Under the pieces are notes generated by a model. It was not told the origin of the DNA and made no database searches. It worked only from the letters and a program-made list of their open reading frames with translations. The position numbers were made by a program, and so were the translations under genes. This document shows, one piece after another, positions 7,945-38,912 of a stretch of 56,810 nucleotides of DNA. Origin of the DNA: Singulisphaera sp. GP187 (GTDB taxonomy: Bacteria; Planctomycetota; Phycisphaerae; Phycisphaerales; SM1A02); contig CAMDAQ010000001.1 in the NCBI GenBank assembly GCA_945888705.1, forward strand, positions 1-56,810. The letters run 5' to 3'. Each line of letters begins with the position of its first letter. The first letter of the stretch is position 1.

Positions 7945-7960
7945 GTGCCTGTTGCAGCGC

Positions 7961-8008
7961 ATGCATGACAGCGGGGCCGGCGCCAGGCCGACCCCGCGGG
8001 TCATGCAT
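7961..8008. terminator. Long imperfect hairpin between convergent tag and the 8025-8822 gene
   Basis: Structure: ATGCATGAC-a-GCGGGGCCGGC-gccag-GCCGACCCCGC-gg-GTCATGCAT. The outer 9-bp stem is perfect and the inner 11-bp stem has one mismatch. The inner part is near-identical to the hairpin at 3794-3820. Confidence 0.5.
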
Positions 8009-8024
8009 CATCGAATGACGCGAG

Positions 8025-17182: not shown

Positions 17183-18586
<1,404 letters not shown>

Positions 18587-18606
18587 GATTGTGTCTTCGA
18601 TTGGGC

Positions 18607-19161
18607 TCAGAATGGTAGAGGCAGGTCCGCCGCGCCAAGCACCGGTGCCGCGGCATCCTTGGGGGAAAGCAGCGCGCACGCGGCGTTGGGCCACGAAATG
18701 CCGATCGCCGGATCGTCCCACCGAATGCCACGCTCGGCACTGCGCGACCAAGCTGCGGTGACCTTGTAGACGACCTCGGTCAGCTCCTCGAGAGCCATGA
18801 GTCCGTGGGCGAATCCAGGCGGCACCCACAACTGCCGTTTGGCCACCGCATCAAGAGTGACCGAGACGGCTCGACCGAACGACGGACTGCCTCGGCGGAT
18901 GTCAACGACTGCGTGAAAGGACCGACCGCGCACGACGCGAATGAGCTTTCCTTGCGCGCTCGGGGGGAGCTGGTAGTGCAGTCCTCGGACCACGCCTCGT
19001 GCACTGAGGGAGTGGTTGTCCTGCACGAAGCGCACCGGGCTTCCCACCGCCGCGGCAAACGCCTCGTCGCTGTGCGTCTCCATGAACCAGCCTCGCTCGT
19101 CGTGGTGCACGCGCGGTTCGATCACGAGCACACCAGGGAGCTCAGTGGCCGTGGCGATCAT
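18607..19161 (-). CDS. rmlC: dTDP-4-dehydrorhamnose 3,5-epimerase
   Basis: [21 protein letters not shown]...[18 protein letters not shown]...[19 protein letters not shown]...[10 protein letters not shown] is the typical RmlC cupin. Confidence 0.95.
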
Positions 19162-20042
19162 CAGCGGGGCAGCTCCGCCGCGAGGCGAGTCAGGTAGCGC
19201 CCGTACTCGGTGTTGGCCATCGGCACGGCCAAACGCTCGAGCTCCACCCGATCGATCCAGCCCTGCCGGAAGGCGATTTCCTCAGGGCACGCGATCTTCA
19301 GTCCTTGGCGGCGCTCGAGGGTGGCGATGAACTGGCCTGCATCGAGGAGCGAGTCATGGGTGCCGGTATCGAGCCACGCGAAGCCCCGACCCATCACCTC
19401 GACCCGGAGCGTGCCGGCAGCGAGGTAGGCACGGTTGACATCGGTGATCTCGAGCTCGCCTCGTGCGCTGGGTCGAAGGCTGCGTGCGATGTCCACGACG
19501 GAGGCATCGTGGAAGTAAAGGCCCGTCACAGCAAGGTTGGACCGCGGAGCGGCGGGCTTTTCCTCGATCGACGCCGCGCGGCCATCAGGACCGAGCTCGA
19601 CCACGCCGTAGCGCCGCGGGTCGAGGACCGCGTGCGCCATCACAGTGGCGCCGTCGCTTGCCGCCGCTGCCCGTTGCAGCAGGCGCTGCAGGTCATGGCC
19701 GTGGAACAGATTGTCACCGAGCACCAGCGCGGAAGGATTCCCTCCCAGGAATCGCTCGCCGATCAGGAACGCCTGCGCGATTCCGGCGGGGTTCGGCTGC
19801 ACCGCGTACTGGATCGATAGTCCCCAGCGTGACCCATCACCCAGCAATCGCTCGAATCGGGGCGTGTCGTCCGGCGTCGAGATGACGAGGATCTCGCGAA
19901 TGCCCGCGAGCATCAGCGTGCTCAGCGGGTAGTAGATCATGGGCTTGTCATAGACCGGCAGCAGCTGCTTGCTCACGACCAGCGTGGCTGGGTGGAGCCG
20001 CGTTCCGGCACCACCGGCGAGCAGGATGCCGCGACGGCTCAT
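19161..20042 (-). CDS. rmlA: Glucose-1-phosphate thymidylyltransferase
   Basis: Start at [58 protein letters not shown] overlap with the rmlD stop. Confidence 0.95.
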
Positions 20043-20926
20043 GCGCCACCTCGGACGAGCGCGCGCACCGTCGCGTCCACGCCCACGGTCCACGATGGGC
20101 GCGCTGACGCGACGAGTGCATCGAGTCGACGACCATCGAGTCGCGAGTTCATGGGTCGCATGGCCTTCAGAGGGTAATCGGCTGATGGCACGGGCGTGAT
20201 GGCATCGGCCGTGCAGCGGAGGCGTGCTCCCAGCGCGGATGCCGTCCGCAGCGCGTGGCACGCGACCTCGTGCCATGACGCGTGGCCTGACGGGACGGCG
20301 TGCACGATCGAGGGCACGACGCCACCCCGAGCGAGCCGATCAGCCAGATCGACGATGGTGGCGGCCAGCCAACGAGCCTCGGTCGGCGCGCCGATCTGGT
20401 CGCTGACGACCCGCAGCGTGTCATGCTCCGCAGCAGCACCGAGGATGCTGCGCACGAAGTGACGTCCGGAGCCTCCATGAAGCCAACTCGTCCGCACGAT
20501 CATGGCATGCCCCGTCGTGAGGCACGCTCGCTCTCCCACGACTTTGCTCCGTCCATAGGCATTCAGCGGCGCCGGTTCGCTCTCCTCCGTCCATGGGCGA
20601 TCACCGCTCCCATCGAAAACGTAGTCCGTCGAGAGCTGCACCAGTCGCCCGCCGACTCGGCCGCATGCCTGCGCCGCTTCGGCGACGGCTTCGCCATTGA
20701 TGCGCGTGGCCAGCGCTTCAGACGACTCGGCACCATCGACGTTGGTCCAGGCGGCGGCGTTGATCACGACCGCGGGCCTGGTCCGCACGATCAGGTCAGC
20801 AACCTGCCCCGGGGACGCAAGGTCTGCCACTGTCCGGTCGGCAGCCGTCAGGCCCCACGCTGTCGGCGCAATGCGGCTGATCGCTGAGCCGAGTTGCCCG
20901 CGTGCCCCAAGCAGCAGCACCTTCAT
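20039..20926 (-). CDS. rmlD: dTDP-4-dehydrorhamnose reductase
   Basis: [13 protein letters not shown]...[13 protein letters not shown]...STDYVFDG...[13 protein letters not shown] overlaps at both ends. Confidence 0.9.
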
Positions 20927-21978
20927 GGGCCGTACTGCTCCCGGACCCACGACGCGTAGGCACCCGAGCGGATGCGTTCAAGCCACACCTCGTTCGCCAG
21001 GTACCAGCGGACCGTTTCGCGCAGGCCGTCCGTCAGGGAATGTCGTGGTACCCAGCCGAGTTCGTCGCGCGTGGAGGAGGCGTCGATGGCATACCGTCGG
21101 TCGTGTCCGGGACGATCCGTAACGAACCGGATGAGGCTCGCGTGGGGCGCGCCGGTGGGCCGTGCCTCGTCGAGTGCACCGCACAGCGACCGCACGAGAT
21201 CGATGTTGGCGCACTCCCCGTGACCGCCGACGAGGTAGGTCGACCCTGGAACACCGCGATCGAGCACGGCGCGCAGGGCCGTGCAGTGATCATCCACATG
21301 CAGCCAGTCGCGGACCTGGCACCCGTCGCCGTAGATCGGGATGGTCTCGCCGGCGGTGGCGCGCGCGATGCACAGTGGGATCAGCTTCTCCGGGAACTGG
21401 CGCGGGCCGTAGTTGTTGGAGCAGTGCGTCGTGATCGTCGGGAGCCCATGGGTGACGTGCCACGCCCGCACGAGATGGTCGGCTGCGGCCTTGCTCGCCG
21501 CGTACGGGCTGTTGGGGCGGTAGTGGCTGGCGCGGTGAAACGCTGGCTCGTCAGGGCCGAGCGATCCGAAGACCTCGTCAGTCGACACATGGACGAAGCG
21601 GAATCGACGGCGTTCGGCAGGGCTTCGATCGCTCAGGTGGTCGGTGCATGCCTGCAGCAGGCACGCGGTGCCACCCACATTCGTGGAGACGAATGCATCG
21701 GCGCCCTTGATGGATCGATCGACGTGCGTTTCCGCGGCGAAGTGCACCACGGCGCGTGGCTGGACCTCGTCCAGCAGATGGCGCACCGTCCCGGGATCGC
21801 GTACATCGCCGCGCACGAATCGGTGTGGCGCGGCTGCCGGCAGCGTTGCAAGATTGTCGAGATTCCCAGCGTAGGTCAGCAGGTCAAGCGTGACGATCGG
21901 CTCCGGCGACTGGGTGCACCACGCGTGCACGAAGGCACTGCCGATGAAGCCTGCTCCGCCAGTGACCAGAATTGGCAC
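20923..21978 (-). CDS. rmlB: dTDP-glucose 4,6-dehydratase
   Basis: MPILVTGGAGFIGSAFV...VHFAAETHVDRS...STDEVFG...SPYAASKAAADHLV...NNYGPRQFPEKLIP. Confidence 0.95.
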   Translation of the reverse strand: MPILVTGGAGFIGSAFVHAWCTQSPEPIVTLDLLTYAGNLDNLATLPAAAPHRFVRGDVRDPGTVRHLLDEVQPRAVVHFAAETHVDRSIKGADAFVSTNVGGTACLLQACTDHLSDRSPAERRRFRFVHVSTDEVFGSLGPDEPAFHRASHYRPNSPYAASKAAADHLVRAWHVTHGLPTITTHCSNNYGPRQFPEKLIPLCIARATAGETIPIYGDGCQVRDWLHVDDHCTALRAVLDRGVPGSTYLVGGHGECANIDLVRSLCGALDEARPTGAPHASLIRFVTDRPGHDRRYAIDASSTRDELGWVPRHSLTDGLRETVRWYLANEVWLERIRSGAYASWVREQYGP

Positions 21979-22041: not shown

Positions 22042-22380
22042 TCACTGCGGGCAGGCGCCCCAGGCGCTGAGCAGGTAGCCAAGGTCCTTGCCGTCGGTGC
22101 TGCCGTCGCCGGTGATGTCGCCGCCAGAGGCCCCCCACGAGGAGAGCATCAGTCCAAGGTCGCCGCCGTCGACCGAGCCGCTGCCATCGAGGTCAGCCGG
22201 GCACGGCGGGGCGCCGGAGCCGGAGCCCGATCCCATCAGTCGGTGGCCACTGGAAAAGTCGTCGTTCTTGGGGGCCTGCAGGCCGCTGTCGCCTCGGTCG
22301 CGCGGTGCCGGCAGGGCGGCCGGGATCAGGGCGGCAAGTCCGACGGAGCAGACAACGATGGTGGCAATGGCATGGGTCAT
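22042..22380 (-). CDS. Small secreted protein consisting essentially of a linker plus one double dockerin-like module
   Basis: Start at MTHAIATIVVCSVGLAALIPAALPA (signal peptide). It has a GSGSGSG linker, then CPADLDGSGSVDGGDLGLMLSSWG and GDITGDGSTDGKDLGYLLSAWGACPQ. No catalytic or binding domain is attached. Confidence 0.7.
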   Translation of the reverse strand: MTHAIATIVVCSVGLAALIPAALPAPRDRGDSGLQAPKNDDFSSGHRLMGSGSGSGAPPCPADLDGSGSVDGGDLGLMLSSWGASGGDITGDGSTDGKDLGYLLSAWGACPQ

Positions 22381-22406
22381 GGCGACAGAACGATACCCGC
22401 TGGTCA

Positions 22407-22443
22407 ATTTCCGGCAAATCGAGGTTGAGAAATTTCCGGAATT
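22407..22443. promoter_or_regulatory. Two TTTCCGG-centred palindrome-like sites upstream of the small dockerin gene
   Basis: ATTTCCGGcAAAT (22407-22419) and AATTTCCGGAATT (22431-22443), with a perfect TTCCGGAA core at 22434-22441. The direct spacing is 24 bp. They lie 27-63 nt upstream of the ATG at 22380 and are related to the sites at 39812 and 43277. Confidence 0.35.
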
Positions 22444-22446
22444 CCG

Positions 22447-22815
22447 TCATACCGGATCGATACGTTGGGTGTTTCCGGGCCGCTGGTCCCGGTCCGCGTC
22501 GTCGAGGGCCATCCGGCGGACCAGCACGGTCATGTCGCGTCGGACCGCGCGCAGGCGCATGTACATGCTCAGGAATCCCCATGACGTGGCCAAGACCAGC
22601 AGGTAGAGCACGAGGTCGGTGCCTCGGCCGATGCCCAGAAGCCGCGCGACGCCGGTCGCCCAATCTGGCTCGATCACGAAGACCGCGCCCAGGGAACACC
22701 CGGCCACCAGGATCGCCGCAATGCCTCTGGGCAGGCTGCCCCTGCGTCCCAGCACCACGCTCGCAGCGACGGTGGTTGCGATGGCCACCAACAGCGCGAT
22801 CTGGAAGACATTCAT
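22447..22815 (-). CDS. DUF2304-type small membrane protein
   Basis: 122 aa with hydrophobic segments. LLGIGRGTDLVLYLLVLATSWGFL...LVRRMAL matches my recollection of DUF2304, a family that typically follows a GT2 gene. ATGA overlap with the GT2 stop. Confidence 0.75.
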   Translation of the reverse strand: MNVFQIALLVAIATTVAASVVLGRRGSLPRGIAAILVAGCSLGAVFVIEPDWATGVARLLGIGRGTDLVLYLLVLATSWGFLSMYMRLRAVRRDMTVLVRRMALDDADRDQRPGNTQRIDPV

Positions 22816-23582
22816 CGGAAAACCCTCCCCACGGCATAGTGGACCAGGATGCGTGCACTGGCCGCCGCCCGCTGCCCCTTGGCGAGCGAGTATTCGGTGT
22901 AGTCGATCGTGGTGGGGAATTGTCCCACGCGCATGCCCGAGCGCGCGATCAGGTCGATGAGCTCGCTCGCGTGCGCCATGCGATCGGATCGGAGCTCGCA
23001 GCGGCGAGCGGCCTCGGCGCTCAGCACGCGGAGTCCGTTGTGGACGTCGTTCAGTGCGATGCCGCTGGTCAGTCGATGCATGAACGCGGCCAGCCGGATG
23101 AGGGCCGCCCGGACCGCTGGAATGCGAGTGCCACCGCCGAACCGATCACCAAGGGCGATGTCGCATTCGCCACGGGCCACGGCGCAGGCCATGCGCACCA
23201 GATCCGCCACCCGGTGCTGGCCGTCAGCGTCGAAGTGCGCGATCCGGTGTGCACCCTTGGCGAGCGCAAAGTCAGTCCCGGTCTGCAGTGCGGCGCCCTG
23301 GCCCCGATTCACGGCGTGTCGCAGCGCATGCGTCGCGTGCGCCTGCAGCACTCCCCAGGATCCGTCCGACGAGCCGTCATCCACTGCAACGACGTTGGGA
23401 AACGTGCGGCCGAGCTCGCGGAGCACCGATTCCACGGCAGTGCATTCGTTGAAGACCGGAACCACGACCCACGTCCCCGCAAGGATCTGCTCGTCAGTGA
23501 GGTCGTGCAACGCGGTCAGGGACTCCACGGGTCGAAGGTACCATCGGCCATGACGGTCGCAAGGAACCACCGAGCATGACAT
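22812..23582 (-). CDS. GT2 glycosyltransferase, polyprenyl-phosphate sugar synthase-like (GtrB/Dpm1-type)
   Basis: VVVPVFNECTAVESVL...VVAVDDGSSDGS...NRGQGAALQTG...HFDADGQH. The start is uncertain. The ATG at 23582 overlaps the divergent ATG at 23576 (ATGACAT), so an internal GTG (for example 23528) may be the real start. Confidence 0.85.
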   Translation of the reverse strand: MSCSVVPCDRHGRWYLRPVESLTALHDLTDEQILAGTWVVVPVFNECTAVESVLRELGRTFPNVVAVDDGSSDGSWGVLQAHATHALRHAVNRGQGAALQTGTDFALAKGAHRIAHFDADGQHRVADLVRMACAVARGECDIALGDRFGGGTRIPAVRAALIRLAAFMHRLTSGIALNDVHNGLRVLSAEAARRCELRSDRMAHASELIDLIARSGMRVGQFPTTIDYTEYSLAKGQRAAASARILVHYAVGRVFR

Positions 23583-25345
23583 CGACTCCGCTGGCCATGA
23601 CCGCTCGGCCCGTCATGCTCTCGGCCTCCGTGCTCTGGCTCTTGGTGATCCTCGTGTGGCGCCCAGTGGTGAACGCGCCGTTCGTCCACGATGACCTTGT
23701 GCAGATCGTCGACCGGGAGCAGCAGGTCGATGCCCCGTGGCGGAGTTGGTCGGCCCTTTCGGCGGGCCAGCGGCCGCTCGTGCAACTCACGCTTGGGGTG
23801 AACCATCAGCTTGGCGGCTTGGATCCGCGGGGATATCACGCGCTGAACATCGCGCTTCACGGCGTGGCAGCCGCACTGTGTCTGATCGTCCTCTGGACGG
23901 CTGCGTGCAAGCTCGTGGAGCGTGGCTCGCTGGCCGCGCAACCGACGTGGATCCTTGGCGCGTGCATGGCTGCGGCAGCGTTGTGGGCGCTTCACCCGAT
24001 CCAGACGGCCTCGGTGAGTTATGTGATCCAACGAGCGGAGCTGCTCGTGGGCGGAGGCGCGCTCCTGGCAGCGTGGGGCCTCCTGCGCGCCTGCTGTGCG
24101 GGAGCCTCGATGCGGTGGCAGGCGCTCGCCGTTGGTGGATGCGTCGCAGCGATCCTCTCCAAGCCATCCGCGGTCACCGTGCCCGCCCTGCTGCTTGCCG
24201 TGGACGCGGCGATCTGCACTGGATCGTTGGCAGCGAGCCTTCGCGAGCGGTGGATGATGCACGCGGCTTGCTGGGCTTCGCTGCTTCTGCTGTTGCCGCT
24301 TGGCGTGGTGGGTTCGCTGATCGGCGATGGCGGTATCGCTCCTTCCGCCGGGTTCAGCGTCCCGGGCGTGGATCCGATGACGTATGCGTGGGCCGAACTC
24401 GGGGCCTTGGGGATCTATGCAGGCGAACTGATCCTGCCACCGCTGATGAGCATCGATCATGGGTGGACCGTCATCGAGACTGCACCTTGGCCGAGGATCG
24501 TCGGTGCGTTGGCGGTGCTGTCCATGCTGGCGACGCTCGTCGTTGGCCTTGCACGGCGAGCATGGTGGTGGATCCTCGGTGCGCTGCCCATGCTCATGCT
24601 GCTCCCGACGTCGAGCATCGTCCCGCTGCGAGATCCGGTCGCGGACCACAGGCTCTACCTCGCGCTGCTCGGTCCGGTGCTAGCGTTCGTCGCGCTCGTC
24701 GCGGTACCGACATCCCGGGCTGGAAGCGGGTGGAGGCGCCTGGGGAGCCTCGTGGTCATTGCCGCGATCGTGACGGCTGCCGTCACCACCATCAACCGCA
24801 ACGAGGCGTGGTGCTCGCCGAGTCGACTGTGGGACCCGGTCATCGTGATGCGTCCCGACGATGCCACCGCCCTGATGAATCGGTCACTGAGCCGTCTTGC
24901 TGCGGGCGACGACGATGGTGCGCGTCTCGATGCGGCGGCAGCGTTCGATGCGCGTCCCTCCGATGGCTCGGCTGCCGCGATGCTCGGGTTGCTCGAGGTG
25001 CGCGCCGGGCATCCAGAGAAGGCGCTTGACTGGTTGCTCCGAGCTGAGTCGCTCGGCACCAAGACAGCAAGCGTTCGTGGCGCCAAGGGCGATGCGCTCC
25101 GGGCGCTCGGTCGCCATGCTGAGGCTGCCGAGGCGTATGAGAGAGCTTCGCGACGATCACCATCGTCTGAACGACTGGCGTTGCTCCATGGCCTTTCGCT
25201 TGCGGAGAGCGGCAACATGGAGGCGGCATCGGTGGTGCTCCAGCGCCTCGCCGCCGAAGCGAGCGATCCGGCGGTGATGGAGCGTGCGCGCGAATGCCTG
25301 GGTGCACTCCCGGGCGGTGCCGGCAGCGGAGCCGCGGAACCATGA
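23576..25345 (+). CDS. Polytopic GT-C-like glycosyltransferase with C-terminal TPR repeats (TMTC/PMT-like architecture)
   Basis: Many hydrophobic segments. The acidic loop motif PFVHDDLVQI follows the first TM segment. The C-terminal soluble part, about 170 aa, has TPR-like repeats (AAAMLGLLEVRAGHPEKALDWLLRAE..., GDALRALGRHAEAAEAYERA...). Confidence 0.7.
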   Translation: MTSTPLAMTARPVMLSASVLWLLVILVWRPVVNAPFVHDDLVQIVDREQQVDAPWRSWSALSAGQRPLVQLTLGVNHQLGGLDPRGYHALNIALHGVAAALCLIVLWTAACKLVERGSLAAQPTWILGACMAAAALWALHPIQTASVSYVIQRAELLVGGGALLAAWGLLRACCAGASMRWQALAVGGCVAAILSKPSAVTVPALLLAVDAAICTGSLAASLRERWMMHAACWASLLLLLPLGVVGSLIGDGGIAPSAGFSVPGVDPMTYAWAELGALGIYAGELILPPLMSIDHGWTVIETAPWPRIVGALAVLSMLATLVVGLARRAWWWILGALPMLMLLPTSSIVPLRDPVADHRLYLALLGPVLAFVALVAVPTSRAGSGWRRLGSLVVIAAIVTAAVTTINRNEAWCSPSRLWDPVIVMRPDDATALMNRSLSRLAAGDDDGARLDAAAAFDARPSDGSAAAMLGLLEVRAGHPEKALDWLLRAESLGTKTASVRGAKGDALRALGRHAEAAEAYERASRRSPSSERLALLHGLSLAESGNMEAASVVLQRLAAEASDPAVMERARECLGALPGGAGSGAAEP

Positions 25346-26340: not shown

Positions 26341-28874
26341 GTCTGCTTCCGATGCTGTGTTGGCTGCTGCTTGCACTGCCTGGTGTGGCGCTCGTGCGGC
26401 GTCGAGTGCCGGCGGCGTGGGGTGGCGGCCCTGTGGCGTGGCTCGGCATCGGTTGGATGGCGTCGCTCATCGCGCTTGCACCCGTTGTCGTGGCGGGATA
26501 TCTGCTGCGGCTGCCGACGGGTGTGGTGGCGGTGGTTGCCGCCGGGTTCGTGGGGTGGGGAGCGATCGAACTCGTCCGGCAGCGCGCGTGGCGCGATCTT
26601 CGCGGCAGCGTCACGGTCGTCGCCATCCTCGGGGCGTGCGTCGTCATCGTCGATGCGGTGCTTGCGGAACGCATCGGGGCGATCCTCGACAATGATGCAC
26701 GCGTCCACGTCGCGAGGATCCGCTTCCTCCTCGACCAGGGCTTCTCCAACGTGGATCCGTTCGTGCGGACTCCCGGCCAGTATCCCTATCCGCTCTACCA
26801 CACCAACATCCTGCATGCCGTGCACGCGATCGTGGCCTGGCTGACGGGGCTCGACCCACTTGATGTCTGGTTTGGCTCACTTGGAGCGTCACGCCTGATG
26901 ATCGCCGGTGCCGCCGCGTGGACCGCGTGGGTCATCGTTGGTGGCCGCTGGGCACCATGGATCGCAGCGGTGCTCGTGGTGCTGTCACGCGTCGACTGCG
27001 ACTACACGCTCTATCCCAATCAGCTTGCGCCGTGGTTCGCCTTTCCGATCGCGGTGGGTGGCGTTGCACTCGTGCTGGCGCGGGACGGCCGTGCCTGGCA
27101 CGCCGCGCTTGCGTGCGCGGTTCTGACGCTGGTCGTGGCCATGGTGCACCCGCTCTATGCCGGCTTTGTGCTGGTGATGCTCCTGCCTGTGCTCGGATGC
27201 TCGATGCTGTGGCGCTGGCTGCGTGGCATCGGGAAGCCAGCCACACCATGGGCATGTGCTGCCGGTCTGGTGATCGCCTCGGTCCCTATGTTGGTGGCCG
27301 TGAAGGCCATGACTGCCAATCCGGGACGCGCCGGTGATGTTGCGCCTGCATCGGCCTGGGAGCGAACGCAATGGAAACTCGATGGGACCGCAGGCAGCGA
27401 GTCGCAGGCCGGCAGCGGCGCGCCCGATGCCCTCGGCCGCGCCCGCACGACGGCGATGCACCGTCAAGACGGCTTCACGATGAGCGAGTCCGGCGGCCGC
27501 CGGTTCATCGCGAGGGATTGGGGTCGAGGCTTCACGGGCGGTTTCGGCGGCGTGCGTGCGTGGCGCCTCTGGTCCGCGATCGCCGCGGCGATCCTGGCGC
27601 TCTCCGTGCTCGGCAGGCCGCAGGCAGCCGTGGCGATGGGGTCGATCCTTGTCGTCGTGGGCGTCATGTCGGTTCCGACGCTGTGCACTGCGGCAATTGG
27701 GTTCCTCGGCGCGCAGTGGATGGTGCTGAGATTCGAGGCACTCGCCACGATCCTGTGGTGCATGCTTGCATTCCCGGCCATCGCAGCAAGCCTCGAGCGG
27801 TCGACCCGTACCCGTCGGGCATGGTCGCTCATGGGGGGGCTGGGCACGATGCTGCTCGCCGCATGGGTCGGGGTTGCGAATGCCGGTCGTGACGCACCCG
27901 TGCGGATGGAGCAGTGGTGGCATCGCGCGATGGCCTCGGCAAGTACTCGATGCGGCGCTGCGCTCGATGGTCTGGTTGAGAACCGTGAGTGGATGGAGCA
28001 GGCAATTCCCGATGGGGCCGTGGTCGCCTGCGGTCGGCTGACCGGGACATGGGTCGCCATGCTTCGCGGTCCGGCGCTCGTGTGCAGCGAGCGAAGTTCA
28101 ACCGGAGTCCCTGCCGGAGCAACGCGCACCCGTCACGTGATCGAGATGCTCGACGACCGGACCGACGACGCTCGTCGAGCGGCGCTGTTCAGGCACTACC
28201 GAGTCAGTCACGTGCTGCTCGCCGGTCGAGCGCCCGCCTGGACCGAGTATTGGACCGCCGAGCTCGACACAGGCGAGGGCCATCAAGTGATCGAGCTTCT
28301 GGATGCCCCCGATCCGCGCAAGGTGTGGGAGCGCGAGGTGTCGGATGCCGCGCGCGAGGTGCTTCACGGCTGCGCCGACCACGCGGAGCCGGCGCTCGAG
28401 GCACTCGTCGACGAGCGGCCGCAGTCGTGGCGAGGATGGAACGCGCTGGGCAACGCGCAGTGGGAGCTCGGCCGCGTTCAGGCGGCGGAGCGGTCCTATC
28501 TCGAGGCCCGGCGGTGCGATCCCAGTGAGCCGATGCCGGAACTGATGCTGGGCAACTGCGCTGAATCGCTCGGCCGCCCTTCCGAGGCAGTCACGCGATT
28601 TGAGTCTGCGGAGGCGATCGCCATCGCTGCCGGAGATCCCGGCGTCGCGGCGTCGGCGAGCTTCAACCGAGCCAACGTGCTGCGGCGGCAGGGTCGCCTG
28701 CAGGATGCCGAGTTCGCGTATCGGCGCGCCGTGCTGCTGGATCCGACGCATGCCGGGGCGCAGGAAGAACTGAAGCGGGCCGGACGCTGGAACGCCCCCG
28801 CAGCAGGGCCGGCTGACGAGGGCGACGAAGGCCAGCCAGCTGGCGAGCATGGCACGAGAGGACTCGAGCCGTGA
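26337..28874 (+). CDS. 845-aa polytopic membrane protein with C-terminal TPR repeats (possible GT-C transferase or polymerase)
   Basis: ATGA overlap at 26337-26340. Numerous hydrophobic segments. An acidic ILDNDARVH loop occurs early. The C-terminal TPR-like region is WRGWNALGNAQWELGRVQAAERSYLEARRCDP...FNRANVLRRQGRLQDAEFAYRRAVLLDP. I cannot name a family. Confidence 0.6.
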   Translation: MSLLPMLCWLLLALPGVALVRRRVPAAWGGGPVAWLGIGWMASLIALAPVVVAGYLLRLPTGVVAVVAAGFVGWGAIELVRQRAWRDLRGSVTVVAILGACVVIVDAVLAERIGAILDNDARVHVARIRFLLDQGFSNVDPFVRTPGQYPYPLYHTNILHAVHAIVAWLTGLDPLDVWFGSLGASRLMIAGAAAWTAWVIVGGRWAPWIAAVLVVLSRVDCDYTLYPNQLAPWFAFPIAVGGVALVLARDGRAWHAALACAVLTLVVAMVHPLYAGFVLVMLLPVLGCSMLWRWLRGIGKPATPWACAAGLVIASVPMLVAVKAMTANPGRAGDVAPASAWERTQWKLDGTAGSESQAGSGAPDALGRARTTAMHRQDGFTMSESGGRRFIARDWGRGFTGGFGGVRAWRLWSAIAAAILALSVLGRPQAAVAMGSILVVVGVMSVPTLCTAAIGFLGAQWMVLRFEALATILWCMLAFPAIAASLERSTRTRRAWSLMGGLGTMLLAAWVGVANAGRDAPVRMEQWWHRAMASASTRCGAALDGLVENREWMEQAIPDGAVVACGRLTGTWVAMLRGPALVCSERSSTGVPAGATRTRHVIEMLDDRTDDARRAALFRHYRVSHVLLAGRAPAWTEYWTAELDTGEGHQVIELLDAPDPRKVWEREVSDAAREVLHGCADHAEPALEALVDERPQSWRGWNALGNAQWELGRVQAAERSYLEARRCDPSEPMPELMLGNCAESLGRPSEAVTRFESAEAIAIAAGDPGVAASASFNRANVLRRQGRLQDAEFAYRRAVLLDPTHAGAQEELKRAGRWNAPAAGPADEGDEGQPAGEHGTRGLEP

Positions 28875-29830
28875 ACGAGCATGAGCCCGATGTCTCGATC
28901 GTGATCGTGAGCTACAACACGGTCGACCTCTTGCGGGAGTGCCTGCGATCGATTCCACGATCGGTCGAGCCCTTCACGCACGAGACGATCGTCGTCGACA
29001 ACCTGTCGCGCGATGGGAGCGCCGACATGGTCGAGCGTGAGTTCCCCGGCGTTCGGCTCGTGCGGGCGGAGCGCAACCTAGGCTTTGCCGGCGGGAACAA
29101 CGCGGCATTCAGGATCGCCCGGGGGCGCCTCGTCTACTGCCTCAACCCCGACACCGTGAGCCATCCCGGGTCGCTTGCGACGCTCGTGAGGCTCCTCGAC
29201 GGCGATTCGACGCTCGGGTACGTCGGTCCGAAGCTGCTGAACGCCGATGGGACCCACCAGCTCAGTGCGTATCGCTTCCATACGCCGCTCTCGGGATTCG
29301 TCAGCTGGTCGATGTTGGGGCTCGATCGCCGATACCCGCGTTCGCGTCATTGCCTCACGCTTCACCACCTCCATGGATGCGACACGCCCTTCGAGGTCGA
29401 CTGGCTGACGGGTGCGGCCATCCTGACGCGCCGTTCGATCATCGATCGAGTCGGAGGCTACGACGAGCGCTACTTCCTGTACGCCGAGGAGATCGAGTGG
29501 TGCTGGCGCATGCACCGTGCCGGCTGGCGGGGGTGGTATGAGCCGGGCGCGGTCGTCACGCACGTCCGCGCGGCGAGCACATCGCACCTCGATGACTCGC
29601 ATGCATTCCATGGACATGATCCGTCGCTGCTCATCGAGAGCCATCGCCGCCTGGCGGTGCAGACGCTTGGGCTGCCGGCGGCCGTCGCGTCGCAAGCGCT
29701 GCACCTGGCAGGAGTCACCCTGGCATGGTTGCGCAACGTGCCACCCATGCCACGACGCAGCCCGGGCACGCGGCGCAGGGCCTGGCTGTGGATGCGCTAC
29801 CTCGTCCGACCGACGCCGCGGAGGCGTTGA
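28871..29830 (+). CDS. GT2 glycosyltransferase (rhamnosyltransferase-like subgroup)
   Basis: GTG start overlapping the upstream TGA. VSIVIVSYNTVDLLRECL...VVDNLSRDGS...NLGFAGGNN...LNPDT...YFLYAEEIEWCWR. Confidence 0.85.
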   Translation: MNEHEPDVSIVIVSYNTVDLLRECLRSIPRSVEPFTHETIVVDNLSRDGSADMVEREFPGVRLVRAERNLGFAGGNNAAFRIARGRLVYCLNPDTVSHPGSLATLVRLLDGDSTLGYVGPKLLNADGTHQLSAYRFHTPLSGFVSWSMLGLDRRYPRSRHCLTLHHLHGCDTPFEVDWLTGAAILTRRSIIDRVGGYDERYFLYAEEIEWCWRMHRAGWRGWYEPGAVVTHVRAASTSHLDDSHAFHGHDPSLLIESHRRLAVQTLGLPAAVASQALHLAGVTLAWLRNVPPMPRRSPGTRRRAWLWMRYLVRPTPRRR

Positions 29831-29836
29831 CCACGC

Positions 29837-30481
29837 ATGCCGATCTCACACGCCCATCGCTGCATCTTCATCCACGTGCCAAAGTGCGGCGGAACGAGCA
29901 TTGAGGCTGCCCTTGGCGTGCTCGGTGACTGGCGCCACGAGGACCGCGAGCGGATGTTCGGCCGCATGACGTCGAGCGATCTTCTGGCCATGCGATGCCG
30001 CTCCCGATTCCTGCAGCACCTGACGTGGGATGAACTGCGACGGGTCGTTCCCGAGCGTGAGCGTCGTGGGTACCGCTCGTTCGCGATGGTGCGCCACCCC
30101 TTGACGCGCCTGGAATCCGCGTGGTCCCGGCCCGACCACGACCTTGTCGAGGAGGCTCGCTGGCAGGGCATTCGGCTCGATGGCGTGGGGTTCGCGCGGT
30201 TCGTCGAAGGCGCGCTACGGCTGGATCATCCGCACGTCCGGCCGCAGGTGGAGTACATCGTCGATGCCGCCGGCCGGATCTCGGTCGATGCGCTCGGTCG
30301 CTACGAGCGCTTCGGGGACGACGCTCGCTCGTTGCTGTCGTCGGTCGGCGTTCACCGGAGCCTCGAGCATCGCAACCCGCCGCTCCGGGCGCGCCACGGA
30401 ATCGAGTGGCCAGCCGAGCTGCGCGCGCGTGCCATCGAGCGATATGGCGATGACTTCAGGATCCTGGGGTACGAGCCATGA
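29837..30481 (+). CDS. Sulfotransferase (Sulfotransfer_2-like, carbohydrate sulfotransferase type)
   Basis: The 5'-PSB-like motif is IFIHVPKCGGTS. The 3'-PB-like motif is FAMVRHPLTRLESAW. The size of about 214 aa is typical. Confidence 0.8.
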   Translation: MPISHAHRCIFIHVPKCGGTSIEAALGVLGDWRHEDRERMFGRMTSSDLLAMRCRSRFLQHLTWDELRRVVPERERRGYRSFAMVRHPLTRLESAWSRPDHDLVEEARWQGIRLDGVGFARFVEGALRLDHPHVRPQVEYIVDAAGRISVDALGRYERFGDDARSLLSSVGVHRSLEHRNPPLRARHGIEWPAELRARAIERYGDDFRILGYEP

Positions 30482-31323
30482 TCCTCGTGATGACGCTGCT
30501 CGTGCGCGACGAGGACGACATCCTCGAGGCGAACCTCGCGTTTCACCGAAGCCGGGGCGTGGATCACTTCATCGTGACCGACAACCTGTCGACCGATCGC
30601 ACGCCGGCGATCCTCGCGCGATGGCGCGACAGGGGGCTCGTGACGATCATCGAGGAACGGCAGGACGACTACGCGCAGCACGCATGGGTCACGCGCATGG
30701 CGCGGACGGCGGCTTCGGACTACGGTGCCGACTGGGTGATCAACAACGACGCTGACGAATTCTGGTGGCCCGCCTGCGGCTCGCTCAAGGAAGCACTTGC
30801 ATCGCTGCCGGCCTCCGCCCACGCGGCGGTGGTCGAGCGCACGAACCTCCCCGCGCTCGATGGTGCCGGTCCATTCTGGGAACGCCTCGTCTGGCGTGAT
30901 ACACAATCACGTAACCCGACCGGCGGTCCGCTTGGTCCGAAGGTGGCGCACCGCGGTGATCGCTCCATCGAGGTCGAGCAGGGCAACCACTTCGTGCGTC
31001 AACGCGGTCTCCGGTTGGTACCGGTTCCGGCCCCGATCGAGATCCTGCATGTGCCGTGTCGATCGTGGCCCCAGTTCGAGCGCAAAATCCGACTCGGTGG
31101 CGCGGCGTACGCACGCAACACCAACCTCAAGCCCTCGATCGGCAAGACGTGGCGGGACCTTCACCAGCGGCTGCTCGAAGGGTCGCTGCGTCGTGAGTAC
31201 GACCGGCAGAATCCCGCGGGCACGGAGCATGCCGCGCAGGTCGCCTCTGGCCGCCTCGTTCGTGACGAGCGGCTCCGCGGAGCATTGGGTGAACTCATGC
31301 ACGACGAGGCAGGCGCAGCGTGA
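30478..31323 (+). CDS. Glycosyltransferase family 2-like protein (Glyco_tranf_2_4 type)
   Basis: ATGA overlap. ILVMTLLVRDEDDILEANLAFHRSRGVDHFIVTDNLSTDRT...WVINNDADEFW. This N-terminal pattern is typical of the stand-alone GT2_4/GT92-like group. Confidence 0.6.
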   Translation: MILVMTLLVRDEDDILEANLAFHRSRGVDHFIVTDNLSTDRTPAILARWRDRGLVTIIEERQDDYAQHAWVTRMARTAASDYGADWVINNDADEFWWPACGSLKEALASLPASAHAAVVERTNLPALDGAGPFWERLVWRDTQSRNPTGGPLGPKVAHRGDRSIEVEQGNHFVRQRGLRLVPVPAPIEILHVPCRSWPQFERKIRLGGAAYARNTNLKPSIGKTWRDLHQRLLEGSLRREYDRQNPAGTEHAAQVASGRLVRDERLRGALGELMHDEAGAA

Positions 31324-33041
31324 ACGAAGCCATCGGCCGTGCATGGGCGCTCCTGGGGCCGCGAGACCGTCGCGTGGCCGTGATGCTCTGTGCAGCGATG
31401 CTCGTGTCGGCGGCGCTTGAGTGCGTCGGGCTGGGCCTCGTGTTCCCAGTGCTCGCGCTTCTGTCGGACGATGCATCGATGCTGCGTCATGCGCCCGACA
31501 TCGTGGCGCAGTCCATCGGCTCGATGCCCCGCCCCCGGCTCATCGTGCTGTGCATGGGCGGCCTCGTCGCCATCTATGTCACGAAGGCCATCTTCCGCTG
31601 GACCCTGGTGCGGCAGGTCAATCGGTTCGGCTTCGCGCTGCAGCGCGAACTCTCCACCCGTTTGTTCGGGCGATTCATCTCGCGGCCGTGGGCTTTTCAT
31701 CTCGCTCGGAACACAACCGGTCTGCTGCACGGCGTGACCCATGATGTCGACCAGGTGGCCTTCGGCGTGATCGTTCCGGCACTGTCAGCGGCCAGCGAAC
31801 TGCTGGTGATCGTGGGGGTGACCGCACTGCTGCTGGCCATCGAGCCGGTTGGTGGATTGGCGTGCCTTGGGCTGATCGGTGCTGCGGGCTGGTGGTTCCA
31901 CCGCAACACCGAGGCCCGGGCTGCGGCGCTCGGTCAGCGAAGGCGCGAACTCGACCGCTCACGATTCCGGCTGATTCGCCAAGCGTTGGAAGGCGTCAAG
32001 GAGATCCAGGCGCTCGGCCGCGAGCGCGGTTTCACCGACCTGGTGGATGACGCCTCGTGCCGAAGCGGTGCGATGGGCGCCCAGGTGCAGTCACTGAAGG
32101 ACATGCCGCGGAGCTGGATCGAGGTCCTTGCGGTGCTCGGGTTGGCGACCCTCGTCAGCTCGATGGAGTTGCGTGGTCGCGACCCCGCCTCGGTGCTGGG
32201 GATCGCGGGGCTCTTCGCGATCGCGGTCTTCCGCCTCGTGCCAAGCGGCACGCGGCTCATGTCGAGCGTGCAGCTGATGGTGCTTGCGGCTCCGAGCCTT
32301 CGCGCCGTAGCCAGCGAACTGGCGCAGTCGACCGCTGCACCCACAGGTTCGGTAGGTGATGAGGACTGGACCGCGATCGATGTCGAGGGGGTGTCCTTCC
32401 GCTACGCGGATGATCGTCCGGCCGTGTTCGGGGGTCTCGATGCGCGTGTCGGTCGCGGCGAATCGGTGGGGGTGATCGGAGCGAGCGGCTCGGGAAAGTC
32501 CACGGTCGTGGACCTCGTCCTTGGGCTGCTGCGGCCCTCCGCCGGACGGATCATGATCGGTCGCGTCGATCTGGCCGACTGCACCCGCTGGTGGCAAGCG
32601 CAGGTCGGCTACGTGCCTCAGGCGATCTACCTGATGGATGACTCCATCCGCCGCAACGTCGCCTTCGGCCTTCCCGAGCGTGACATCGACGAGGCGGCCG
32701 TCGTCCGCGCCCTGCGCCTGGCGCGACTCGATGACTTCGTGGCGTCGCTGCCCGACGGCCTGTCCACCGTCGTGGGCGAACGTGGCGTCCGTTTGAGCGG
32801 GGGACAGCGACAGCGCATCGGGATTGCGCGGGCGCTCTACGCACGGCCGACGGTGCTCATCCTCGACGAGGCGACGAGTGCACTCGATCCCGCGACCGAG
32901 GCGGAGCTGCTCCAGGCCATTCACGCGCTGCAGGGCACCGTCACGATGATCGTGGTTGCCCATCGTGAAGCAACCGTCGCGCGGTGCGACCGTGTGCTGC
33001 GCCTCGATGCCGACGGGCTCGCGGAGGCCGGACGTGCCTGA
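31320..33041 (+). CDS. ABC exporter, fused TMD-NBD (MsbA/PglK-type)
   Basis: GTG start overlapping TGA. N-terminal six-helix-type TMD. The NBD has Walker A GASGSGKST, signature LSGGQRQRIGIARAL and Walker B VLILDEATSALD. Confidence 0.9.
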   Translation: MNEAIGRAWALLGPRDRRVAVMLCAAMLVSAALECVGLGLVFPVLALLSDDASMLRHAPDIVAQSIGSMPRPRLIVLCMGGLVAIYVTKAIFRWTLVRQVNRFGFALQRELSTRLFGRFISRPWAFHLARNTTGLLHGVTHDVDQVAFGVIVPALSAASELLVIVGVTALLLAIEPVGGLACLGLIGAAGWWFHRNTEARAAALGQRRRELDRSRFRLIRQALEGVKEIQALGRERGFTDLVDDASCRSGAMGAQVQSLKDMPRSWIEVLAVLGLATLVSSMELRGRDPASVLGIAGLFAIAVFRLVPSGTRLMSSVQLMVLAAPSLRAVASELAQSTAAPTGSVGDEDWTAIDVEGVSFRYADDRPAVFGGLDARVGRGESVGVIGASGSGKSTVVDLVLGLLRPSAGRIMIGRVDLADCTRWWQAQVGYVPQAIYLMDDSIRRNVAFGLPERDIDEAAVVRALRLARLDDFVASLPDGLSTVVGERGVRLSGGQRQRIGIARALYARPTVLILDEATSALDPATEAELLQAIHALQGTVTMIVVAHREATVARCDRVLRLDADGLAEAGRA

Positions 33042-33885
33042 CGCAGCGCTCTCGCGCACGGCCGACTGCGGGATCGTGACGCTCGCCGATGCGCGCTACG
33101 CCCCCGGCGTCGACATGCTGTGCCGGTCCGTCCGCGAAAGCCTCGATCTGCCGGTCGCCTGCTTCGACCTCGGTCTGGGTGCGGCGGTGATCCAGCGGCT
33201 CTGCACGAACCACCCTTCGTTGCGCGTGCTGCCGATGCCAGAGAGCGCCGATCTCTTGGCCGTGCGGCGCGTGTTCGAGTCAGCGGGTCCTCTTGCGAAG
33301 CCCGGCAAGCGCGTCTGGCCGATCTGGGCTTGTCCGTTCCTGATCGCGGCCAGCCCATTCGCGCGGACCTTTTGGATCGATGCCGACATCGTCGTGCTGC
33401 GGCACCTTGCAGGGCTGGTCTCGTTGCTCGACGTTGGACCGGTGCTCACGCCGGAGAACTTCGCACCAGCCGTCACGCCCAACAAGCCAGAGCTCTATCG
33501 GCTGCTGCCCATCGCGCGCCGGTTCGATCCGCTCGAGCCACGGTTGAACGCGGGCATCTCCGGCTGGGATCATGCGCGCGCCGAGGATCGTGCACTGCTC
33601 GACGCCTATTGCCATGCCGTGCGCTCGGCGTGCGCCGATCCTCGGATCGCGAACGCCATCTCCTGGTGGGACCAGGGATCCCTGATCTGGGCGGTGCAGT
33701 CGTGCGGGCTCGAGCATCGGGTAGTGCGGACGAACGCATGGAACCTCTGCATCCGCAACACGCGCGCCAAGGACATCGACGTCGGCTGGGATGATGGCAC
33801 GCTCGCTCGTCTGCGGGACCTCGTCCCCGAGGGCAACCTCCTCCACTGGAACGGGACTGCGCCACCGTGGGGCGTGGTGGCATGA
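33034..33885 (+). CDS. Nucleotide-diphospho-sugar transferase, GT8-like
   Basis: CGIVTLADARYAPGVDMLCRSV... and the DxD-like FWIDADIVVL. The start is uncertain: GTG 33034 overlaps the ABC gene end, and an ATG lies at 33007. Confidence 0.6.
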   Translation: MPDAALSRTADCGIVTLADARYAPGVDMLCRSVRESLDLPVACFDLGLGAAVIQRLCTNHPSLRVLPMPESADLLAVRRVFESAGPLAKPGKRVWPIWACPFLIAASPFARTFWIDADIVVLRHLAGLVSLLDVGPVLTPENFAPAVTPNKPELYRLLPIARRFDPLEPRLNAGISGWDHARAEDRALLDAYCHAVRSACADPRIANAISWWDQGSLIWAVQSCGLEHRVVRTNAWNLCIRNTRAKDIDVGWDDGTLARLRDLVPEGNLLHWNGTAPPWGVVA

Positions 33886-36488: not shown

Positions 36489-36554
36489 GGCGTGCGATCG
36501 AGTCTAGCGGTGGGTGCCTCGCCGCGGAGATCGAAGCACCGTACGCTCGTGCTC

Positions 36555-38899: not shown

Positions 38900-38912
38900 G
38901 CTCCTGACCGCC

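Follow-up and report, generated by a model that had tools for sequence, protein, structure and literature searches.

A putative three-component-type glycosylation module in a planctomycete: a PpgS/GacI-type GT2 and its DUF2304 partner encoded head-to-head with a TMTC-like GT-C protein bearing tetratricopeptide repeats

Which sugar-transfer system is encoded by a glycosyltransferase gene that is coupled to the gene of a small membrane protein and lies head-to-head with the gene of a polytopic protein ending in tetratricopeptide repeats (TPRs), and what does this system modify? The question is raised by a locus within 56,810 nucleotides of Singulisphaera sp. GP187 (assembly GCA_945888705.1, contig CAMDAQ010000001.1, positions 1 to 56,810; this whole stretch is called the window here). 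A sequence-only reading of the locus had proposed a periplasmic glycosylation system made up of a family 2 glycosyltransferase (GT2; GT2a in the following), a 122-aa DUF2304-type membrane protein coupled to it through an ATGA overlap, and a divergently encoded polytopic protein with an FVHDD loop and C-terminal TPRs, and we found all of these features in the sequence as it had described them. Our analysis leads to the probable, if not firmly secured, interpretation that the locus encodes a three-component-type extracytoplasmic glycosylation module situated in a surface-glycan cluster.

The motifs WVVVPVFNE, VDDGSSDGS and FDADGQH all lie in the minus-strand open reading frame (ORF) 22812-23582, the product of which matches Pfam Glycos_transf_2 (6e-14). 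The best NCBIfam model for GT2a is that of PpgS (NF058614; 3.1e-58, 197 bits, profile positions 2-218 of 226); the next matches, to the archaeal AglJ (2e-10) and dolichyl-phosphate hexose transferase models, are weaker by at least 48 orders of magnitude, and the PgaC model covers only the N-terminal Rossmann part of the protein (residues 36-108, about 70 residues). A single-sequence phmmer search of the PDB gave no match for GT2a, and the closest solved relatives of a three-sequence profile are DPMS (5mlz, 4e-9) and ArnC (1.8e-5). Both of these enzymes transfer a sugar to polyprenyl phosphate. Since the matches to PpgS and dolichyl-phosphate hexose transferase are joined by DPMS and ArnC as closest structures, sequence comparison identifies GT2a as a polyprenyl-phosphate sugar synthase of the PpgS/GacI type and not as a processive enzyme, which is the grouping that the sequence-only reading had expected. 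By analogy, the sugar made by GT2a is probably an N-acetylhexosamine (HexNAc). No transmembrane (TM) segment is evident in GT2a on inspection.

The 122-aa ORF matches Pfam DUF2304 (PF10066) with 62 bits (6.1e-17; cut-off 25.5) over almost the whole profile, from position 2 to position 105 of 106, and inspection suggests about three TM helices followed by a basic C-terminal helix. Its gene lies directly downstream of GT2a, the stop codon of which overlaps the DUF2304 start as ATGA; the corresponding pairs in the related loci L001 and L003 also overlap by 4 nt, and the two genes occur together in all 22 loci that carry the module (L numbers denote related loci; L001/L002 and L003 are metagenome contigs). 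Biochemical precedent exists for such a pair: the DUF2304 protein GacJ co-purifies with the GT2 GacI, lowers the Km of GacI for undecaprenyl phosphate from 18.7 to 1.1 µM and raises its Vmax from 54 pmol to 18.5 nmol/min/mg, which is approximately 340-fold, whilst Rv3632 of Mycobacterium tuberculosis stimulates PpgS (Rush et al.). GacI and DUF2304 genes are often neighbours, and natural GacI-DUF2304 fusions exist (Rush et al.); flipping of a lipid by GacJ or Rv3632 is not among the published demonstrations. By homology and analogy we infer that the 122-aa protein belongs to the GacJ/Rv3632 family and acts as activator and membrane subunit of GT2a; a DUF2304 protein that supplies the membrane part would fit, because GT2a itself has no TM segment. 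The sequence-only reading had placed this protein in the slot that GtrA fills in Gtr systems. This assignment we do not maintain, as GacJ and Rv3632 bind or assist the synthase, and it is another protein, GacK, that has been proposed as flippase.

The third component is the 589-aa product of ORF 23576-25345(+), in which FVHDD (residues 36-40) stands immediately past the first hydrophobic helix and TPR matches are found at residues ~496-567 (Pfam TPR_16, 2.4e-8; TPR_2, 2.7e-6). AlphaFold2 modelled the full-length protein with a pLDDT (predicted local distance difference test) of 92.3 and the membrane domain alone with a pLDDT of 90.1 and a pTM (predicted template modelling score) of 0.91; the TPR domain of the full-length model comprises ten helices, equivalent to about five TPR pairs. 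When the full-length model was used, Foldseek was swamped by TPR proteins such as MamA and the TPR region of OGT. With the membrane domain, the PDB matches of probability at least 0.94 were all GT-C enzymes save the PIG-U subunit of the glycosylphosphatidylinositol (GPI) transamidase: STT3B (6s7t), yeast Stt3, ArnT (5f15/5ezm), Pmt4 (9i5k), AftB, EmbB, AglB, PglB and DPY19 all belong to this set. TM-scores on the query were 0.37-0.53 for the GT-C matches, with Pmt4 (9i5k) at 0.53, and the remaining matches outside the GT-C class had probabilities <0.5 and TM-scores <0.22. Judged from these models the 589-aa protein has a GT-C fold, in agreement with the sequence-only reading.

Motifs of the TMTC type, namely DD, RP, HP, K, D and R..Y, are conserved in this protein. 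Conservation was counted in alignments of 56 and of 27 GT-C sequences: D39, P67 and H140 are invariant in the family alignment, whilst conservation is at least 90% at D40, R66, N91, H95, P141, K196, Y281, P288, D294, P350 and R408. The TMTC enzymes are characterised by seven motifs, M1-M7, with the sequences DD, SHKSYRP, RxD, KE(T/Q)xxT, DW, PxxP and ERxxY (Eisenhaber et al., PMC7801869). The window protein presents FVHDD at M1 with the DD kept, only the RP of M2 (R66-P67), R153-A-E155 at M3, K196-P197 at M4, D294 followed by His at M5, the two prolines of M6 at another spacing (P344..P350) and D357-H-R359-L-Y361 at M7, where Arg and Tyr are kept; H140-P141 is present in addition. The likeness to TMTCs proposed earlier extends to part of the motif set; the SHKSY of M2 and the Glu of M4 are missing. 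Profile searches were similarly divided: the window protein matched neither PMT_2 nor TMTC_DUF1736, whilst 6 of 27 diverse relatives matched PMT_2 (best 8.9e-9), 2 matched TMTC_DUF1736 (best 3.9e-8) and 2 matched GtrII. The homologue family is large, its members with organism names are bacterial, nearly all bear C-terminal TPRs, and several are labelled "protein O-mannosyl-transferase" by JGI; no eukaryotic or TMTC label appears among the 120 listed matches of the membrane-domain profile, the named ones being bacterial or metagenomic. With regard to topology, the helix pattern of the model and the charge distribution were combined with the 11-TM assignment of TMTC and TfpW. In the resulting 11-TM model external loop 1 (EL1; six Asp/Glu), EL4 (six Asp/Glu and no Lys/Arg) and the TPRs lie outside and clusters of Arg are found at the cytoplasmic ends, so that the FVHDD loop and the five TPRs are predicted to be periplasmic, in line with the periplasmic system of the earlier reading. 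On the basis of the model we therefore regard the 589-aa protein as a bacterial TMTC-like GT-C with a periplasmic active site, which falls outside Pfam DUF1736 by score.

The association of the three genes was followed through a scan of one genome per species, which yielded 80 loci; linkage was assessed within +/-10 kb, and one clade dominates the set. The scan profile was built from the closer alignment, the more divergent alignment having failed for this purpose. The closest scan loci are from metagenome-assembled genomes (MAGs) of Planctomycetota with GT-C proteins 91% and 89% identical to that of the window; identity is 61% in L001/L002 and 39% in L003, and these contigs share the core DUF2304-GT2a <> GT-C-GT2b-TM/TPR2, in which GT2b is a further GT2 and TM/TPR2 a second membrane protein with TPRs, of DUF6541 type. 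In L001 the called genes of GT2a and GT-C are 20 bp apart, and in L003 61 bp. Every one of the 19 assessable loci whose GT-C membrane domain is at least ~36% identical has GT2a and DUF2304 divergently adjacent to the GT-C gene, and in the same 19 loci the DUF6541-TPR gene lies downstream wherever the flank allows. Because it recurs in all of these loci, the arrangement is far beyond chance. Among approximately 62 more distant loci the adjacent pair was found only in L028, L047 and L076 (in L078 a pair lies 10.5 kb away), and the co-occurrence anticipated by the sequence-only reading therefore extends over the assessable close relatives and three distant ones. L076 (56% G+C, GT-C ~29% identical) carries a compact DUF2304-GT2a <> GT-C-GT2b-Wzx-methyltransferase locus with neither rml genes nor a large cluster, and in L028 a second TPR protein is encoded after DUF2304-GT2a <> GT-C, close to a gene for a dockerin protein. 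Directly beside the DUF2304 gene of L076 there is also a small ThsB-like TIR-domain gene (8236-8679).

A residue signature accompanies the pair. By hmmalign, none of the 22 GT-C proteins encoded beside GT2a and DUF2304 has the K-E of M4, all of them having K-P or K-A, while about half of the GT-C proteins without an adjacent pair carry K-E; the position in question, after the conserved Lys, is residue 197 of the window protein (24164-24166) and was compared with its equivalents in L001-L085. The window clade moreover has QRP, ID[HR]G and [AV]DHR where others have GRP, DYG and EHR. This comparison of sequences is suggestive of K-E versus K-P/K-A as a mark of donor specificity, although it does not constitute independent evidence, as 19 of the 22 pair-bearing GT-C proteins belong to one clade. 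Distant GT-C homologues occupy unrelated contexts. In a Verrucomicrobia MAG (L005; JADKHC010000024.1, 810-12274) a 757-aa TPR-GT-C is encoded directly after FliD, FliS and two flagellin genes, with a TPR protein matching Glyco_transf_41 nearby, a context that hints at flagellin glycosylation by a lipid-donor GT-C. L004 (GCA_048497935.1, 10001-14012) holds tandem TPR-GT-C paralogues of 579 and 740 aa, of which the second has a weak PMT_2 match, and no glycan genes are found nearby.

The head-to-head arrangement itself had posed a problem for the sequence-only reading: as the ATG codons of the longest GT2 and GT-C ORFs overlap (ATGACAT, 23576-23582), it had concluded that at least one start or promoter must be unconventional. 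Residues 1-36 of the longest GT2 ORF are unconserved among homologues, however, and a GTG codon at 23526-23528 (V19; plus-strand CAC) does not vary among the five sequences of a DNA alignment, which are those of the window and four relatives; the called 238-aa GT2 gene of L001 implies the same GTG start. The overlapping ATGs are thus an artefact of taking the longest ORF, and with the conserved GTG start both the overlap and the case for an unconventional promoter disappear. From this start GT2a has 238 aa, and a 47-bp intergenic region (23529-23575) separates the two genes. It contains a conserved block (23529-23567) of the sequence GAAGGTACCATCGG..TCG.TCGCAAGGAAC, which is identical to L001 at 30/39 positions compared with 56/86 and 37/68 in the flanking coding DNA, and both exact 10-11-mers of the block are confined to five loci with GT-C proteins ~60-91% identical. 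Among relatives with ~60% protein identity the block is thus better conserved than the coding DNA beside it. The gene calls of L001 and L007 read the block as coding, but in a different frame. A match to a sigma-70-type promoter or a terminator was not obtained in the divergent region, a result that says little for this phylum. The block may be a shared operator, regulatory or ribosome-binding element.

Two further genes belong to the conserved core. GT2b, whose start is ATGA-coupled to the GT-C gene at 25342, has a hydrophobic C-terminal region on inspection and matches Pfam Glycos_transf_2 (1.6e-25), Glyco_tranf_2_3 and Glyco_transf_21 as well as NCBIfam MftF (1.3e-37); its structural relatives are mixed (EpsD, GalT1, MpgS and, at only 2e-4, ArnC). 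GT2b comes next after the GT-C in nearly all module loci, the distant L047 and L076 included. It also stands beside related GT-C genes in L021, L022, L046 and L040 without GT2a and DUF2304 in the flanks, the upstream flank of L040 being almost nil, whilst L011 and L028 have GT2a and DUF2304 with the GT-C and no GT2b within 10 kb. We regard GT2b as a membrane-anchored GT2 that is a candidate for a rival donor synthase or a lipid-directed glycosyltransferase; as a donor synthase its sequence makes it a weaker candidate than GT2a. The DUF6541-TPR protein has homologues of 835-950 aa (L001, 10754-13270; L003, 12857-15499), one of which, P0092, is 845 aa long and 99% identical; the named homologues are from Planctomycetota/Phycisphaerae and many carry PF20176, with DUF6541 matches in L001 (profile 3-610 of 646) and L019 (54 bits). 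Within the clade its gene lies downstream of the GT-C, usually straight after GT2b, and its start overlaps the preceding gene as ATGA at 26337. The loops ILxNDARVH..ARIR, YPNQLAPW, HPLYAGF, RGFTGG and LGAQWM..RFE are strongly conserved. For the possibility that this protein is a second GT-C, hhalign against the TMTC-like family gave a probability of 2.6%; no sequence relative was found in the PDB and no literature was found on DUF6541. GT2b and the DUF6541-TPR protein, which share a conserved operon, probably form a second step.

The coordinates of the module and of the genes around it are collected in Table 1. The G+C content is 66-69% throughout the window, and the module sits within a ~20-kb surface-glycan cluster of a Phycisphaerae-type planctomycete, from which the fumarase gene is excluded. 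The 4-nt start/stop overlaps at 22812, 25342 and 26337 (three times ATGA) and at 28871 (once GTGA) form a chain that joins GT2a to DUF2304 on one side and GT-C, GT2b, DUF6541-TPR and the following GT2 on the other; this chain points to a pair of divergent operons, both tightly coupled. From fumarase to the first minus-strand GT2 past the methyltransferase, gene order is identical in L001 and L002. The dTDP-rhamnose genes were recognised from their translations: their syntenic homologues in L001 match dTDP_sugar_isom, NTP_transferase, RmlD_sub_bind and Epimerase/GDP_Man_Dehyd, and RmlB is 80-95% identical in L001 and L006-L008. Genes of flippase type also accompany the module, namely an ATP-binding cassette (ABC) exporter in the window clade and a Wzx-type protein in L003, L076 and others, and either may serve the main glycan instead of the polyprenyl-phosphate sugar; L003, with its Wzx-type protein, has no ABC exporter and has other sulfotransferases. 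These lie at 7872-8795 and 19884-21481 of that contig, the window having one sulfotransferase gene of its own and a weak sulfatase-like ORF (38724-39812) after the GT4 gene. The product of the cluster may be a sulfated glycan.

Table 1. Coordinates of the module, its neighbours and the dockerin-like domains in the window (TMD, transmembrane domain; NBD, nucleotide-binding domain).
Feature	Positions	Strand	Basis or remark
Fumarase	17183-18829	-	outside the cluster
rmlC, rmlA, rmlD, rmlB (dTDP-rhamnose)	18607-21978	-	downstream of GT2a-DUF2304, same strand; translations
121-aa dockerin-like protein	22042-22407	-	between rmlB and DUF2304
DUF2304 protein, 122 aa	22447-22815	-	Pfam PF10066
GT2a, 238 aa	22812-23528	-	PpgS match; GTG start; longest ORF to 23582
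Divergent intergenic region, 47 bp	23529-23575	.	carries the conserved block
GT-C membrane domain, residues 1-418	23576-24829	+	model, 11 TM helices
C-terminal TPR domain of GT-C, residues ~415-577	24818-25345	+	Pfam TPR_16, TPR_2
GT2b, 332 aa	25342-26340	+	Pfam Glycos_transf_2
DUF6541-type membrane protein with C-terminal TPRs, 845 aa	26337-28874	+	homologues
GT2	28871-29830	+	Pfam; GTGA coupling at 28871
Sulfotransferase	29837-30481	+	Pfam
GT2	30478-31323	+	Pfam
Fused TMD-NBD ABC exporter (ABC_membrane + ABC_tran), flippase candidate	31320-33041	+	Pfam
ORF without assigned function	32956-33885	+	
Methyltransferase	33867-34637	+	Pfam
GT2	34634-35683	-	Pfam
GT2	35568-36488	-	Pfam
GT2	36234-37673	+	Pfam
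GT4	37670-38899	+	Pfam
Dockerin-like domain	22045-22203		
Dockerin-like domain	46841-46999		
Dockerin-like domain	41827-41991		
Dockerin-like domain	7036-7200		
Dockerin-like domain	10991-11137		
Dockerin-like domain	2715-2882		
Dockerin-like domain	861-944		

Seven proteins of the window contain a GC-type dockerin-like domain of ~50 aa (CPADL.GDG.VDG.DLG.LL..WG, repeated), which is C-terminal where the ORF ends are clear. They include two PA14/laminin-G proteins, a C-type lectin protein, a matrixin-type peptidase and the 121-aa protein, and are the same proteins that the sequence-only reading had described as Cys-rich and secreted. The 121-aa protein has a hydrophobic N-terminus (anchor or signal), a Gly/Ser linker and the dockerin-like domain, for which NCBIfam NF041540 (dockerin_GC) gives a match of 4.7e-4, below the cut-off. 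Its gene is kept at the same position in L001, L002, L006, L007, L008 and L011, and its product could be an acceptor or an anchor.

From the family assignments, the fold, the motif conservation and the gene linkage we infer a scheme for the module that extends to its sugar, to GT2a as the partner of the GT-C, to the topology and to the acceptor. At the cytoplasmic face, GT2a and the DUF2304 protein would form a two-subunit synthase that transfers one sugar, probably a HexNAc, from its UDP-sugar to polyprenyl phosphate; in this complex the DUF2304 protein would anchor and activate the TM-less GT2a in the manner of GacJ and Rv3632, as homology suggests. The lipid-linked sugar would then be flipped, with the MsbA/PglK-like ABC exporter, its Wzx-type replacement in relatives or an unlinked protein as candidates for this step. 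On the periplasmic side, the TMTC-like GT-C would bind the polyprenyl-phosphate sugar through D39/D40, R66, H140, K196, D294 and R359 and pass the sugar to an acceptor that its five periplasmic TPRs hold or select, an activity that is attributed here by homology.

Several observations speak against this scheme and are the reason for our caution. It is built on homology, models and linkage. Neither of the two membrane domains of the window, that of the GT-C (residues 1-430) included, has a Pfam match even at E<=10. In case of the GT-C, a membrane-only profile retrieved nothing from the PDB sequences (the whole protein and the full-length profile retrieved TPR proteins only), and the Foldseek E-values are weak (best 2e-3), although the ranking is unambiguous. 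The M4 Glu, a proposed metal ligand in TMTCs, is Pro in the window clade, and the SHKSY residues that are missing from M2 are the mannose contacts. GT2a, with its 197 bits, stays below the cut-off of 370 for PpgS equivalogs (polyprenyl-phosphate-GalNAc synthase), which makes it a relative of PpgS and not an equivalog, so that its sugar cannot be assigned from this match. GT2b is linked to the GT-C subfamily at least as widely as GT2a and could be the donor synthase. Finally, none of the cluster genes scanned could be recognised as encoding an initiating phosphoglycosyltransferase, a polymerase or a ligase, and the modules of L028 and L076 lie outside any large polysaccharide cluster, which weakens the case for a glycan as acceptor.

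As acceptor we tentatively propose a glycan that contains rhamnose, is probably sulfated or methylated and is produced by the genes around the module, a proposal by analogy that falls just short of an even chance: it is favoured because both studied systems with a GT2 and a DUF2304 protein decorate polysaccharides and because the module is embedded among rml, glycosyltransferase and exporter genes. The same chemistry could serve a protein acceptor, the GT-C then being a TMTC/TfpW-like O-glycosyltransferase that decorates secreted or surface proteins such as those with GC-type dockerin domains, including the 121-aa protein. This main alternative we consider possible and, on balance, rather unlikely; it stays plausible because of the precedent of TMTC and TfpW, the dockerin proteins and the cluster-free L028 and L076. 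TMTC1-4 and TfpW are the closest characterised enzymes of the same architecture and they glycosylate proteins, the JGI labels of several family members point in the same direction, and one of the seven dockerin-like proteins of the window is encoded in the module operon itself; the module of L003 is flanked by PA14/lectin proteins with a dockerin-like tblastn match, and the dockerin protein of L028 is likewise a flanking one. Yet the GT-C of both studied GT2/DUF2304 systems modifies a polysaccharide (the polyrhamnose of the group A carbohydrate, GAC, and arabinogalactan), the module of the window clade is surrounded by glycan genes, and TPRs may also contact sugars (TfpW preprint). An extended version, in which the core DUF2304-GT2a <> TPR-GT-C-GT2b-DUF6541-TPR would be a dedicated periplasmic protein-glycosylation machine of Phycisphaerae that decorates GC-type dockerin proteins at the surface, the small one of the operon included, the DUF6541-TPR protein would represent a new class of lipid-donor glycosyltransferase or oligosaccharyltransferase and K-P/K-A versus K-E would mark a change of donor sugar throughout a large bacterial TMTC-like family, is speculative and as a whole quite improbable.

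With respect to the donor, the pairs might be swapped, so that GT2b makes the donor of the GT-C and GT2a/DUF2304 feeds the DUF6541-TPR protein or another enzyme. The coupling of GT2b to the GT-C gene, its position after it in nearly all module loci, its presence beside related GT-C genes without a visible pair, its hydrophobic C-terminal region and its ArnC match are all compatible with such an exchange; what makes it unlikely in our view is that its best matches are MftF, EpsD, GalT1 and MpgS whilst those of GT2a are PpgS, DPMS and ArnC, that it is absent within 10 kb in two loci where pair and GT-C are present, and that sequence comparisons give no GT-C signal for the DUF6541-TPR protein. 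That the DUF2304 protein is the flippase, alone or besides activating the synthase, appears very unlikely. It is the sole small polytopic membrane protein of the module, none of the cluster genes scanned matched the GtrA family, and the flippase of the PpgS/Rv3779 pathway is not yet identified; the data on GacJ and Rv3632, however, concern a synthase complex and its stimulation, GacK is the proposed GAC flippase, natural fusions to GacI-type GT2s fit the role of a subunit, and the module loci carry a Wzx-type protein or an ABC exporter. Hardly any weight can be given to the notion that the adjacency is incidental and that the GT-C uses an unrelated donor, for instance polyprenyl-phosphate mannose made elsewhere. 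Approximately 58 of 62 loci at <=36% identity have no pair nearby, so that their donors would come from unlinked genes, but in all 19 assessable clade loci the genes stand head-to-head across a very short spacer, the arrangement recurs in three distant lineages with different surroundings, and the pair-bearing GT-C proteins share active-site differences from the K-E type, all of which argues against coincidence.

The interpretation of the locus as a synthase, its DUF2304 subunit and a periplasmic GT-C invokes no new principle: each part comes from a known family, and the mechanism is the established three-component scheme. The sequence-only reading had been aware of no described system of this composition, which does not hold, since GacI/GacJ/GacL and PpgS/Rv3632/Rv3779 also combine GT2, DUF2304 and GT-C, and TfpW is a GT-C with TPRs. 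What is new is that a GacIJ/PpgS-type synthase is paired with a TPR-bearing TMTC-like GT-C, a combination for which a literature search found no publication joining GacJ, GT-C and TPR, together with the core of five genes, GT2b and DUF6541-TPR among them, that a planctomycete clade strictly conserves, and the active-site signature. Bacteria of the Planctomycetota, Verrucomicrobiota, Omnitrophota and Myxococcota encode many TMTC-like GT-C proteins with TPRs, and a single scan confirmed >200 such loci; their annotation hardly ever goes beyond "tetratricopeptide repeat protein", and, save for the architecturally similar TfpW, no study of them was found. The clade described here is the first to tie such a GT-C to a recognisable donor synthase by strict gene linkage, and it leads to the concrete hypothesis that the donor is a polyprenyl-phosphate HexNAc from a GacIJ-type complex. 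It would also carry the GacI/GacJ model beyond the walls of Gram-positive bacteria into a diderm phylum whose surface glycans are poorly known, and it flags the DUF6541-TPR proteins as unexplained partners.

Comparison with known systems places these features in context. GtrA/GtrB/GtrC systems share the general scheme of polyprenyl-phosphate sugar synthase, flippase and GT-C, with single sugars added after export. GtrB-type GT2 proteins bear their own C-terminal TM helices; the window differs from this in having a TM-less GacI/PpgS-type synthase with a separate DUF2304 protein, TPRs on the GT-C and no GtrA-family protein that we could find. The eukaryotic protein O-mannosyltransferases TMTC1-4 have in common with the window GT-C the 11 TM helices and C-terminal non-cytoplasmic TPRs (model-based in the latter case), as well as the DD of loop 1, RP, HP(I/L)xT, the Lys of EL3, the Asp of EL4 and the Arg and Tyr of EL5, whilst their donor is dolichyl-phosphate mannose and that of the window GT-C is likely polyprenyl-phosphate HexNAc from the adjacent synthase. 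TfpW of Pseudomonas aeruginosa, which D-arabinofuranosylates pilin from a lipid-linked monosaccharide donor, has its N-terminus in the cytoplasm, 11 predicted TM helices, C-terminal TPRs and, in periplasmic loop 1, a DDx motif that is essential; loop 1 and the C-terminal domain have been demonstrated to be periplasmic, and TPRs can serve the contact of proteins with sugars as well as with other proteins (TfpW preprint). Its likeness to the window GT-C is one of architecture, and its setting is different: the gene lies beside pilA, and the D-arabinofuranose donor stems from chemistry derived from phosphoribosyl pyrophosphate, with no GT2/DUF2304 synthase.

Closer in composition are PpgS (Rv3631)/Rv3632/Rv3779 of M. 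tuberculosis and Cgp_0394/0393/0658 (+Cgp_0396) of Corynebacterium glutamicum, which decorate arabinogalactan with galactosamine; there, transfer is the task of the GT-C Rv3779, and flipping of the lipid-linked sugar is ascribed to "as yet unidentified factors". PpgS is the best curated model for GT2a, a DUF2304 helper is likewise present, the GT-C of that system acts on a wall polysaccharide, and the further GT2 that C. glutamicum needs parallels GT2b. In contrast, the GT-C gene is head-to-head with the synthase gene here and elsewhere in the genome there, judged by locus numbers; the window GT-C has TPRs, whereas the texts consulted mention no TPR domain for Rv3779; no deacetylase was seen in the window; and, with GT2a scoring below the PpgS equivalog cut-off, the sugar may differ. 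The remaining system is the one that adds the GlcNAc side chain of GAC in Streptococcus pyogenes through GacI/GacJ/GacK/GacL, with Wzx-type GacK as the proposed flippase and the GT-C GacL transferring to polyrhamnose (Rush et al.). The window clade departs from it in having an ABC exporter for Wzx and, in addition, GT2b and the DUF6541-TPR protein; GacL is described only as a polytopic GT-C in the text consulted, and by this description it is set apart from the TMTC-like GT-C with C-terminal TPRs. The hosts also differ, as Planctomycetota are diderm and S. pyogenes is not. In its essentials, however, the module resembles the GAC system: a GT2 synthase followed by its DUF2304 partner, a GT-C acting outside the membrane, genes for dTDP-rhamnose and rhamnan close by and, in the relatives L003 and L076 of the window, a Wzx-type protein as well.

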